Shown here: positions 11,234-13,671 of the stretch, piece after piece
Layout: the number at the start of each line of letters is the position of its first letter
How positions within the stretch are numbered: the first letter of the stretch is position 1
From: Nannocystis pusilla
GTDB taxonomy: Bacteria > Myxococcota_A > Polyangia > Nannocystales > Nannocystaceae
NCBI RefSeq assembly: GCF_020073745.1
Contig: NZ_JAIRAU010000002.1
Span: 81,694 to 145,693 of the forward strand
DNA: 64,000 nt
Direction: 5' to 3'
Program-made: the position numbers and the translations under genes
Notes under the pieces: model-generated
The model's database searches: none
The model's input: only the letters and a program-made list of their open reading frames with translations
Told to the model about the DNA's origin: nothing

Positions 11234-12082
11234 ATGCAGCGGGCCGCCTCTCACATTCGACACGATCGCGCCGCCGCGGCGCTGGCGGTGCTGCTCGGCT
11301 GCCACGCGGCCGAGTACGAGGGGATCGACGGGATGGCGCCGGAGCGGGCCTCGGAGTGCGTGGAGCCGGGCGCGCGGTGGTTCAGCTTCACGGGCGCGCC
11401 GCAGACGTTCGTGGTGCCGGAGTGCGTGACGACGCTGGCGGTCGAGCTGTGGGGCGCGCAGGGCGGGCCGAGCCGCTGCGGCACCGACGACGAGCACGGC
11501 CTGCCCGACGTGCAGGAGGACGGCGGACACGGGGGCCGATTGCGAGCTGACCTTTCGGTCAGCCCCGGCGATGTCGTGCTGGTGCACGTCGGCGGCCGCG
11601 GAGGCCTCGACGGCGCGCCCGGCTGGAACGGCGGCGGCAGCGGCGGGAGGTGGGGCGGCGGCGGCGGCGGAGCGTCGGACGTGCGCCTGAACGGCGCGAG
11701 CCTGGTCGATCGCGCGCTGGTGGTCGGCGGCGGGGGCGGCGGCGTGTGCGGCTATCCGGATCACGGAGCGGGCGGCCACGGCGGGGGGCTGGCGGGCGAG
11801 GACGGGATCGTCGGTGACGTGAACTGGCGCGCAGGCGGCGGCGGACAGCCGCACGCGGGTGGAGCGGGCGGCGCGGCGCCCGGTCAGTCCGGCGTGTTCG
11901 GGCTCGGCGGCGGGGCGGCCGGCTACCACGTGGCCGGAGGCGGCGGCGGCTGGTACGGCGGTGGCGGGGCCTTCGGCGCCGGCGGAGGCGGTGGTTCGTC
12001 GTACGTGGGTCCCGCCGGCAACGATGCGGAGCTCGAGGTCGGCGCGCGCGACGGCGATGGCGTGGTGGTGATCAGCTGGTGA
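11234..12082 (+). CDS. glycine-rich secreted protein (Gly_rich/ALK GlyR-like polyglycine domain)
   Basis: GGAGGAGG RBS. Signal/lipobox LLGC. FSFTGAPQTFVVPECVTTLAVELWGAQGG start motif, then long GGGGG runs with GGGGWYGGGG. Confidence 0.7.
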   Translation: MQRAASHIRHDRAAAALAVLLGCHAAEYEGIDGMAPERASECVEPGARWFSFTGAPQTFVVPECVTTLAVELWGAQGGPSRCGTDDEHGLPDVQEDGGHGGRLRADLSVSPGDVVLVHVGGRGGLDGAPGWNGGGSGGRWGGGGGGASDVRLNGASLVDRALVVGGGGGGVCGYPDHGAGGHGGGLAGEDGIVGDVNWRAGGGGQPHAGGAGGAAPGQSGVFGLGGGAAGYHVAGGGGGWYGGGGAFGAGGGGGSSYVGPAGNDAELEVGARDGDGVVVISW

Positions 12083-12440
12083 GCGCGGCGACCCGCGAGC
12101 GGACGGCGCGAGGCGGAGCTGGAGATCGCGGCGCGCGCGACGGCGATGGCGTGGTGGTGATCAGCTGGTGAGCGGGGCGGACGGCGCGAGGCGGAGCTGG
12201 AGCTCGCGGCGGGCGGATGGTGTGGATGGGGAGCCGCGGGTGAGCGCGTCGATGGGGGTGCAGATCTGCCAGTGAGCGCGGCGTGATCCTGGTTCGCGCG
12301 TGAGTGCGTCGAGATCTGCCAGTGAGCGCGGCGTGGTTCAGGGTGGGAACGCGTCGAGATGCGGGCGGACGGCGGCGAGGCGCGGATGGAGACAGGTGAC
12401 GTGCACCGGCGCGGTGCAGCTGCGGGGACGGCGAGGACGC
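12043..12440. repeat. tandem duplication of the last ~40 nt of the glycine-rich gene plus downstream sequence (about 90-bp unit, twice), followed by degenerate about 45-bp repeats
   Basis: GCGCGCGCGACGGCGATGGCGTGGTGGTGATCAGCTGGTGAGCG at 12043 and again at 12131. GACGGCGCGAGGCGGAGCTGGAG twice. ATCTGCCAGTGAGCGCGGCGTG twice. Confidence 0.8.
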
Positions 12441-12487
12441 GGGGCGCGTGGCGAACGTCGTGCGGCGGCGAGGGGCGCCGTCTTGCG

Positions 12488-12524
12488 AGGATGTCTTTTG
12501 GACATGTGCGAAGGGACATCCTCA
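12488..12524. repeat. TGTCC/GGACA palindromic array upstream of the second glycine-rich gene
   Basis: GGATGTCTTTTGGACATGTGCGAAGGGACATCC. Confidence 0.75.
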
Positions 12525-12615
12525 TGGAGAGCGGCGCGGCGCTGGTGATGCGGGACACAACGGGGTTTGCGTGCCTGCCTGCTGCGCATCAGACCTACAG
12601 GTCGCAGGGGGGGCG

Positions 12616-13671
12616 ATGCAGATGGTACGCAAGGGCCGATGGTGCACGGTGTCGGTGGTGTTCACGATCACCGTCGGCGGCTGCGACGAGGTCTCGGACA
12701 CGCAGCCCCCGCGGCCGGTGCCGGGCGCGCTCGCGGTCGCCGAGGCGGACGGGGACGCCGATCCGGACAAGGCGTTGGTGCGCGCGTGCGAGGCGGCCGC
12801 GCTCGACCTGTGCGGTGCGGAGTGCGTCGACATCACGCTCGACGCGCGCCACTGCGGCGGCTGCGGCCGCGTCTGCGCCGGCACGTGCGCGGCGGGCTAC
12901 TGCGCGGCGCCGTGCTGGCGGGGGCAGATCCGCTGCGACGGTCAGTGCGTCGAGCGCACGCGCGTGACGCCCGGCGGCCGCGCCCGCGAGTTCGCGTTCA
13001 CCGGCGCGCCGCAGACGTTCGTGGTGCCCGACTGCGTGTCGCGGATCACCATCGAGGCGTGGGGCGCCCAGGGCGGCGGCTCGCGCTGCTGCGACGGACC
13101 GGAGCAGGACGACGGCGGCCGCGGTGCTTACGTGCGCACCGAGCTCGAGGTCGAGCCGGGTGAGGCGTTGCGGATCGTGGTCGGCGGACGCGGCGGGCTC
13201 GAGGGCGCGGCTGGTTACAACGGCGGCGGCGTCGGGGGCGAGTTCGCGGGCGGCGGCGGCGGGGCCAGCGACGTGCGCCGCGGCGGGACGGGTCTCGCAG
13301 ATCGGCTCGTGGTCGCGGGGGGCGGCGGGGGCGGACAGTGCGGCTGCCCCGATCACGGCGAGGGCGGTCCGGGCGGCGTGTTCATCGGCGGCGCCGGCGT
13401 GGCGCTGTTGCCCGAGTGGCAGGCGGCAGGCGGCGGCACGCAGAGCGACGGCGGGGCCGTGGGCTCGGTGCCGGGCGAGCCGGGCCTGTTCGGCAGCGGC
13501 GGCGGCGTCGGCCTGTACCACGTGGCAGGCGGGGGGGGCGGCTGGTTCGGCGGCGGCTCGGCCTACGCGGCGGGCGGGGGCGGCGGCTCGTCGTACCTCG
13601 GCGACGAGCCCGAGGGCAGCGGGCTGCCAGGCGTGCGCGCGGGCGACGGATTGGTGGTGATCCGCTGGTGA
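12616..13671 (+). CDS. glycine-rich lipoprotein, paralog of 11234-12082, with extra N-terminal Cys-rich module
   Basis: RBS AGGGGGG. Lipobox TVGGC. FAFTGAPQTFVVPDCVSRITIEAWGAQGG plus polyglycine runs. C-terminus GDGLVVIRW matches the paralog's GDGVVVISW. Confidence 0.7.
   Translation: MQMVRKGRWCTVSVVFTITVGGCDEVSDTQPPRPVPGALAVAEADGDADPDKALVRACEAAALDLCGAECVDITLDARHCGGCGRVCAGTCAAGYCAAPCWRGQIRCDGQCVERTRVTPGGRAREFAFTGAPQTFVVPDCVSRITIEAWGAQGGGSRCCDGPEQDDGGRGAYVRTELEVEPGEALRIVVGGRGGLEGAAGYNGGGVGGEFAGGGGGASDVRRGGTGLADRLVVAGGGGGGQCGCPDHGEGGPGGVFIGGAGVALLPEWQAAGGGTQSDGGAVGSVPGEPGLFGSGGGVGLYHVAGGGGGWFGGGSAYAAGGGGGSSYLGDEPEGSGLPGVRAGDGLVVIRW

Follow-up and report, generated by a model that had tools for sequence, protein, structure and literature searches.

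Do two adjacent glycine-rich genes of a myxobacterium encode the fold that binds ligands in the animal receptor kinases ALK and LTK, or does the likeness go no further than composition? The question is raised by a 64,000-nt stretch of the Nannocystis pusilla genome (contig NZ_JAIRAU010000002.1, positions 81,694 to 145,693), hereafter the window, in which an earlier sequence-only reading had recognized two tandem paralogs, gene 1 and gene 2, with the signature of the Gly_rich family. Few protein architectures are as rare as the polyglycine-II (PGII) lattice, which makes up the core that binds ligand in a major human oncogene product. Our analysis leaves very little doubt that both are proteins of the TNF-like/polyglycine-II (TG) domain type, and the locus as a whole is probably best explained by a pair of paralogous, lipid-anchored TG-domain lipoproteins with a role in binding or adhesion.

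Two tandem genes with a TG domain

The list of open reading frames (ORFs) contains two frames on the same strand, 11234-12082 (282 aa) and 12448-13671 (407 aa). The second is open from a GTG at 12448, and its supported start is an ATG at 12616 that yields a product of 351 aa. We take the ATG, rather than the GTG, as the most likely start of gene 2 because the 351-aa product is 100% identical to an annotated N. pusilla "glycine-rich protein" (entry P0016 of our homolog set), because the N. radixulma ortholog is likewise called at 351 aa, and because this start exposes a signal peptide. The two genes and their domains are as follows.

11234-12082, + strand: gene 1, putative lipoprotein precursor of 282 aa, nearly all of it one TG domain (ORF, PF12810)
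11375-12079, + strand: TG domain of gene 1, residues 48-282, nine beta-strands between glycine-rich segments (Pfam, secondary structure and confidence of the model, alignment to ALK)
12616-13671, + strand: gene 2, putative lipoprotein precursor of 351 aa (identity to P0016, N. radixulma call, PF12810 at 80.4 bits)
12955-13668, + strand: TG domain of gene 2, residues 114-351 (Pfam, alignment to ALK, model confidence mostly 88-97, selection ratio 0.36)

Over 254 aa the two paralogous products share 57% identity (E 2e-36), and glycine makes up 32% and 27% of the mature gene 1 and gene 2 proteins, respectively. All the motifs quoted in the sequence-only reading are present: FSFTGAPQTFVVPECV...VELWGAQGG, GGGGGG at residues 141 and 165, GGGGGWYGGGG, and the ending GARDGDGVVVISW in gene 1, and FAFTGAPQTFVVPDCV...IEAWGAQGG, GGGGGWFGGG, and the ending GVRAGDGLVVIRW in gene 2. 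The one correction concerns the end of gene 2, which reads RAGDG and not RDGDG. A tblastn search of the window returns only gene 1 and gene 2, with no further paralogs.

Although the GC content of the window is 70-78% over most of its length, both ORFs are real genes and not the phantom frames of GC-rich DNA, as three lines of evidence attest. Both show the codon-position pattern of coding sequence (GC content at third positions, GC3, of 0.88-0.89, with the expected excess of GC1 over GC2), both have syntenic orthologs, and the ratio of non-synonymous to synonymous substitution (dN/dS) relative to N. radixulma is 0.19 for the gene 1 domain and 0.36 for the gene 2 domain, which speaks for purifying selection; the underlying counts are small.

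The domain shared with ALK and LTK

Searched against Pfam, each protein matches PF12810 (ALK_LTK_GRD, formerly Gly_rich) in a single stretch that covers profile positions 12-201/203 of 243, with 74.9 bits for gene 1 and 80.4 bits for gene 2 against a gathering cut-off of 24.5 bits; all 66 of the 66 aligned homologs match the same family. The assignment to the Gly_rich family is thereby borne out, as is the relation to the receptor ectodomains. When a profile of the 66 bacterial homologs is compared with all sequences in the Protein Data Bank (PDB), ALK and LTK occupy the top 8 of the 10 matches at E<=1 (best E 1.5e-5), and the ALK alignment spans the domain from the first strand through the last. 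An AlphaFold2 model of gene 1 built on the 66-homolog alignment reaches a predicted local distance difference test score (pLDDT) of 93.8 and a predicted template-modelling score of 0.89, and the best 20 Foldseek matches of the fold in the PDB are all ALK or LTK. According to DSSP, the model consists of nine beta-strands and long segments that have neither an alpha nor a beta assignment (pLDDT 92-99), with no helix of four or more residues. The model contains a TNF-like beta-sandwich whose strands are interleaved with glycine-rich segments.

To place the glycine-rich segments, we started from the 14 polyglycine-II helices whose location in ALK has been published (PMC13243192). All 14 align with glycine-rich counterparts in both gene 1 and gene 2 through the shared profile. 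From the superposition on ALK and the high pLDDT of the segments that lack an alpha or beta assignment, we infer polyglycine-II geometry for both domains. The sequence-only reading had proposed structure prediction as a check for hexagonally packed helices; the prediction returns the ALK/LTK-type fold with high confidence, and the hexagonal packing itself is a presumed feature. There is strong support for homology between this domain, the part of ALK and LTK that binds ligand, and the distal domain found in some phage tail fibers.

The TG supradomain of ALK and LTK (PDB 7LS0, 7LRZ, 7NX3, 7NX1) and of the Caenorhabditis elegans receptor SCD-2 (7LIR) thus shares its fold and its Pfam family with the Nannocystis proteins. 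Unlike the receptors, however, the bacterial pair has no transmembrane helix, kinase, MAM/LDLa region, or EGF-like module, and a predicted N-terminal lipid anchor is found in their place; these are not receptor tyrosine kinases. The Nannocystis domains also lack the four insertions of ALK (27, 14, 7, and 4 residues), whereas they carry a six-residue insertion of their own in segment D. Because those four insertions are missing, gene 1 and gene 2 represent a minimal TG domain. This bacterial version, at 235 residues, would make a convenient minimal model for the folding of a glycine lattice and for the display of binding surfaces, and it would help to trace the origin of the ALK/LTK ectodomain. 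We know of no ALKAL/Augmentor-type ligand in bacteria and made no search aimed at one.

A further difference from ALK lies in a set of Asp, Arg, Ser, and His residues that are specific to the bacterial proteins. Across the 66 bacterial homologs, D149, R151, and S255 never vary, and R160 and N132 hardly ever do; the first two lie with R160 in ASDVR...DR and S255 lies in GGGGGSS. In the alignment with ALK, D149, R151, and R160 are not conserved: ASDVR is replaced by ATYVF, the DR arginine by PL, PDHG by VLGL, and YH by CS. Residues D149, R151, R160, and S255 may form a conserved site, or they may only make salt bridges.

Signal peptides and the cysteine-rich module of gene 2

Both precursors begin with a basic n-region and an uncharged h-region that lead to a lipobox with Cys23, and gene 2 carries a further module ahead of its TG domain.

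11234-11302, + strand: gene 1 signal peptide and lipobox, MQRAASHIRHDRAAAALAVLLG|C23 (PS51257-type pattern; conserved in N. radixulma and N. exedens)
12616-12684, + strand: gene 2 signal peptide and lipobox, MQMVRKGRWCTVSVVFTITVGG|C23 (lipobox pattern; orthologs)
12781-12954, + strand: cysteine-rich module of gene 2, residues 56-113, 11 Cys, C-x3-C-V-D-x7-H-C-G-G-C-G-x2-C (profile resemblance, AlphaFold2)

As a criterion we used a pattern of the PROSITE PS51257 type, [LVI..][..][AGS]-C with the cysteine within the first ~35 residues, which is matched by gene 1, gene 2, and 29 of 94 homologs; the GGC/AGC lipobox is kept in the aligned gene 2 orthologs. A Sec/lipoprotein-type signal peptide is strongly supported for both products, which are probable lipoproteins. 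In place of "secreted", the term of the sequence-only reading, "lipoprotein" is the better description in view of the Cys23 lipobox in both.

The N-terminal cysteine-rich module proposed for gene 2 is also there, with the string CGAECVDITLDARHCGGCGRVCAGTC and 11 cysteines. Its best matches are Stig1 (PF04885; E 8e-4, 20.2 bits, under the cut-off of 24.1) and the NCBIfam MXAN_6577-like family (NF041328; 28.6 bits, under the cut-off of 100), with which it shares the spacing C-x3-C-V-D...(H/N)-C-G-x-C-G-x2-C. The module thus resembles these families in sequence and falls short of membership in either. AlphaFold2 models it as small beta-hairpins (pLDDT 65-91), and 12 of the 66 homologs likewise have a Stig1-like module ahead of the TG domain. 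In the comparison with N. radixulma, the signal peptide and linker of gene 2 evolve fast (15.5 non-synonymous versus 2.5 synonymous differences), and the cysteine-rich module and TG domain are under constraint.

A very large and little-studied family

Word-indexed searches recovered 699 and 1,395 relatives. When the search was made exhaustive with a profile, the yield was 32,771 representatives of 50%-identity clusters at E<=1e-3, 6,952 of them at E<=1e-30. The largest relatives reach 7,819 aa and hold the TG domain in as many as 11 copies. Fusion partners in the family are modules of the surface or sorting kind: type IX secretion system (T9SS) tails, IPTL-CTERM, PKD, Ig-like, HYR, SprB, and RTX modules, and Cys-rich repeats. 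Among phage families, PHROGs 7388, 5811, and 1589, all of unknown function, match strongly, and the viral structure library BFVD yields 135 matches, some labeled tail fiber or virion structural protein.

We noted in addition that entries P0196-P0344 of our homolog set are proteins of 2,000-7,800 aa with 3-11 tandem TG domains. A TG-like fold also appears in BFVD among predicted proteins of giant eukaryotic viruses (Tetraselmis virus 1, Pyramimonas orientalis virus, megaviruses, moumouvirus, Fadolivirus, and Edafosvirus); some of these matches are labeled collagen-like and several have template-modelling scores (TM-scores) of 0.3-0.4. The low-scoring ones may partly reflect the glycine lattice alone.

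The pair are ordinary members of a very large, annotated family, and both the Pfam domain and the name "glycine-rich protein" are already public. Since public annotation already assigns the domain, the discovery is a modest one that would not surprise a specialist. What it adds to the annotation is that the proteins are probable lipoproteins, that the family exceeds 30,000 representatives at 50% identity, and that one name in circulation is wrong. UniRef/UniProt gives "receptor protein-tyrosine kinase" for P0001-P0004, P0016, P0019, and viral entries. Pfam detects no kinase domain in gene 1 or gene 2, nor is there one in the relatives so named. Because these proteins stop at the last TG strand and have no kinase, the name was evidently transferred in error from ALK through the shared domain. 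The statement that bacterial members are almost unstudied agrees with the literature that we searched, in which we found no study of a cellular bacterial PF12810 member; reviews of polyglycine-II bundles do not include such bacterial proteins.

What the proteins might do

ALK and LTK bind cytokines through the TG region. The corresponding unit of the cyanophage Pam3 protein gp24 is the distal part of a fiber and has been proposed to act in host recognition (PMC9608196). Given that relatives with an assigned role bind, that the fusion partners are of the adhesin type, and that giant members carry the domain in tandem repeats, a binding role for gene 1 and gene 2 is plausible by analogy, at a confidence that we would put at or slightly under even. 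In such a scheme, the proteins would be exported and then lipid-anchored in the cell envelope through Cys23, and the rigid, glycine-packed domain would bind or adhere to a partner at or beyond the cell surface. Specificity would be carried by the non-glycine loops and the face of the beta-sandwich, and the disulfide-rich, Stig1-like module of gene 2 could serve as a stalk or as a second binding element. A bolder version, which we consider unlikely, sees in the pair true surface recognition receptors of a predatory gliding myxobacterium that bind a defined prey-envelope or peptide ligand through the loops and sandwich face on the polyglycine-II lattice, with the invariant Asp, Arg, and Ser cluster as the mark of a conserved ligand site, and a minimal prokaryotic ancestor of both phage tail-fiber tips and, by horizontal transfer, the metazoan ALK/LTK region.

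The compositional explanation with which we began, that of low-complexity glycine-rich sequence or phantom ORFs unrelated to the ALK domain, draws on the 27-32% glycine of the mature proteins, on the many long spurious ORFs that arise in GC-rich DNA, and on a high HMMER bias term in the match to ALK. We reject it, at a residual probability that is negligible, because the profile match, the PDB profile search, the structural matches, and the dN/dS values all show a likeness that extends beyond low-complexity glycine. An origin in phage could draw on structural similarity: gp24 of Pam3 (PDB 7YPX/7YFW) and the "tail wing brush" protein gp33 of mycobacteriophage Bxb1 (PDB 9D93) have a distal unit in common with the Nannocystis proteins that combines a TNF-like sandwich with glycine-rich segments. 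That match is far weaker than the one to ALK, with no sequence similarity by profile at E<=1, and the phage proteins, which depend on a chaperone, possess an N-terminal helical domain for docking or trimerization. The Nannocystis proteins instead have lipoprotein-type signal peptides and a chromosomal, non-phage context in which VWA and hydrolase neighbors are syntenic in three species. Lacking both the docking domain and a phage context, they are not phage fiber proteins, and a prophage remnant or a domesticated tail-fiber receptor-binding protein in a phage-derived, tailocin-like particle is rejected on the grounds of signal peptides, synteny, and neighbors; we regard it as a very slim prospect. 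The gp38 adhesin of Salmonella phage S16 (PDB 6F45) offers a different parallel in that a PGII lattice is described as the rigid base on which variable receptor-binding loops are displayed. Its 10 PGII helices sit on a beta-helix and not on a TNF-like sandwich, however, and it is not among the PDB fold matches, so that the likeness is an analogy of principle and not demonstrated homology.

Two other explanations concern what the domain does and leave its identity untouched. If D149, R151, R160, and S255, with the histidines of PDHG and YH, made up an active site or a metal-binding site carried by the glycine scaffold, the proteins would be enzymes or enzyme-like. The conservation of D149, R151, and S255, and nearly that of R160 and N132, among 66 diverse bacterial homologs is what one would expect, and since the Asp and Arg of ASDVR, the DR arginine, and the PDHG and YH histidines are replaced in ALK, the fold itself does not demand them. 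We nevertheless consider an enzyme improbable, as no catalytic family is matched in Pfam or NCBIfam, the solved relatives are binding modules, the domain recurs in as many as 11 tandem copies within giant proteins and alongside adhesin-type modules, as is typical of binding repeats, and an Asp and an Arg on adjacent strands may be mere structural salt bridges. A role that exploits the flat PGII faces physically, such as ice or crystal binding or reinforcement of a matrix, has a precedent in the springtail antifreeze proteins, which according to a review use PGII bundles as an ice-binding scaffold, and the Nannocystis proteins are suitably small, single-domain, and rich in glycine. The PDB structure matches contain no antifreeze PGII bundle, however, and consist of proteins with the TNF-like sandwich, namely ALK, LTK, and phage tail proteins, and the fusion partners of the family are adhesin and sorting modules; this role is hardly credible, marginally less so than a phage origin.

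The reading that we prefer, a pair of lipid-anchored binding or adhesion proteins, has its own weaknesses. Lipoprotein status is read from a sequence pattern only, and to our knowledge the inner-membrane, outer-membrane, or surface location of myxobacterial lipoproteins cannot be predicted reliably. The PGII geometry comes from predicted models rather than measured angles. The invariant D149, R151, R160, and S255 might belong to a site whose role is not simple binding. Finally, the homologs in Ottowia and in a Myxococcales metagenome-assembled genome share no neighborhood with the Nannocystis locus, so that no operon or functional hint comes from outside the genus.

Conservation of the locus

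Within Nannocystis, N. pusilla, N. radixulma, and N. exedens share the gene order VWA/GATase1-like, TG gene 1, TG gene 2, alpha/beta hydrolase, and platelet-activating factor (PAF)-acetylhydrolase-like. Gene 1 is 95% identical to its N. radixulma ortholog, and in N. punicea and N. exedens the ortholog of either gene shares 70-76% identity with it, more than the 57% between the paralogs; the duplication is therefore older than the split of these species.

13703-14653: alpha/beta hydrolase, 316-aa ORF, downstream neighbor
14663-15955: PAF-acetylhydrolase/dienelactone-hydrolase-like protein, downstream neighbor

The N. radixulma ortholog of the alpha/beta hydrolase is called at 293 aa, and the 316-aa ORF is probably over-extended. 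If so, the palindrome-like ACATGACCGAAAAGACAT at 13701 lies upstream of the true hydrolase start. The N-terminus of the PAF-acetylhydrolase/dienelactone-hydrolase-like protein (MRRFASLSLLLAAC...) also resembles a lipoprotein signal. Phantom ORFs of 460-1,267 aa, rich in Arg, Ala, Gly, and Pro and typical of 75% GC DNA, run across the real genes on the opposite strand or in a different frame (7178-10981, - strand; 7828-10854, + strand; 12595-13977, - strand; 13382-15874, - strand).

Repeats and candidate regulatory sites

The DNA around the two genes is rich in repeats and short palindromes.

12027-12345, + strand: degenerate tandem array originating in the 3' end of gene 1 (repeat families D2, D3, D14, and D19)
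10701-11090, no strand: repeat-rich spacer upstream of gene 1 (Tandem Repeats Finder, TRF; families D4, D6, D10, and D11; motif counts)
12487-12523, no strand: palindrome GAGGATGTC-N19-GACATCCTC enclosing GGACATGTG, possible operator or promoter element that lies ~95-125 nt before the gene 2 start
5724, 10769-11080, 12491-12523, 17184-17290, 20378-20400, 24631-24650, 28948-28980, 35239, 38474-38560, and 52023-52160: sites of the motif GGACATGTC
13668-13698, + strand: weak terminator-like hairpin with a T-rich tail directly 3' of gene 2 (consensus scan, pattern match only)

The 3' duplication pointed out in the sequence-only reading is real and includes an exact copy: the final 36 nt of gene 1 are repeated, at 36 of 36 positions, from 54 nt past the stop codon. 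The first copy of the array is the end of gene 1 itself (core 12040-12102) and the second (core 12129-12191) matches it at 90% over 63 nt, with older, decayed copies after it. Neither N. radixulma (25/36) nor N. exedens (19/36) has the exact 36-nt copy, and the array, which lies out of frame and past the stop, is a lineage-specific minisatellite without evident function. The spacer between the TG genes measures 533 nt in the window (12083-12615), 828 nt in N. radixulma (locus L001, 6850-7677), and 406 nt in N. exedens (locus L002, 6850-7255). In the N. radixulma spacer there are four GATCTGC cores in decayed units GCAGATCTGCCAGTGAGCGCGG...GATCCAGGTTC, compared with two in the window and none in N. 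exedens; the repeat unit appears to derive from the end of gene 1 (GTGATCAGCTGGTGAGCGCGGCG).

Upstream of gene 1, which is also preceded by a GGAGGAGG run, TRF reports a 101-nt tandem repeat at 10701-10890 (1.9 copies, 89% matches) that starts with the last ~33 nt of the VWA gene (stop at 10732). Each unit holds one palindrome, a third partial copy lies near 10961-11004, and N. radixulma has about four decayed copies (L001, 5440-5760). For gene 1 and the VWA/GATase1-like gene alike, the gene's 3' end has thus given rise to a tandem array downstream of it. Ungapped 3'-end duplications in the window are confined to gene 1 (36/36) and the gene at 30759-33305 (28/36, 85 nt past the stop), and that of the VWA gene is seen only with indels; with two ungapped cases, we rejected the idea that genes in this stretch generally duplicate their 3' ends.

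The palindromic arrays reported beside the gene pair are real, with 11 matches to ATGTCGCAAGGGACAT against 0.16 expected, and they are not specific to it. The self-complementary core ACATGT occurs 26 times in the window, where by our own estimate base composition would predict ~2, and ~20 of these occurrences are intergenic, mostly in spacers beside gene starts. It forms the center of the window-wide intergenic motif GGACATGTC, which often takes the form ATGTC-N6-GACAT or a 14-nt period. The densest cluster lies upstream of gene 1, with four ATGTC-N6-GACA(T/G) palindromes at 10771-11037 and a 14-nt-periodic GACATG array at 11034-11090. In its 5-N6-5 layout, the motif resembles operators of the CRP/FNR type.

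The palindrome at 12487-12523 is near-identical in N. radixulma, with one base changed, and N. exedens has an equivalent, GGGACATGTCGCGAGAGACATGTG, at the same relative place, although the spacers differ in length and repeats. Its retention in three species despite those differences suggests that the site 95-125 nt upstream of gene 2 may be regulatory. Scans of this region found no sigma-70-type promoter consensus, and an Rfam search of the repeat-rich spacers gave no match at E<=1. A sigma-54 promoter upstream of gene 1 was considered and rejected by eye, the spacing in GGCAGCACG-G7-TTGCA being wrong. The terminator consensus scan that marked the hairpin 3' of gene 2 returned 4 sites against 0.6 expected.

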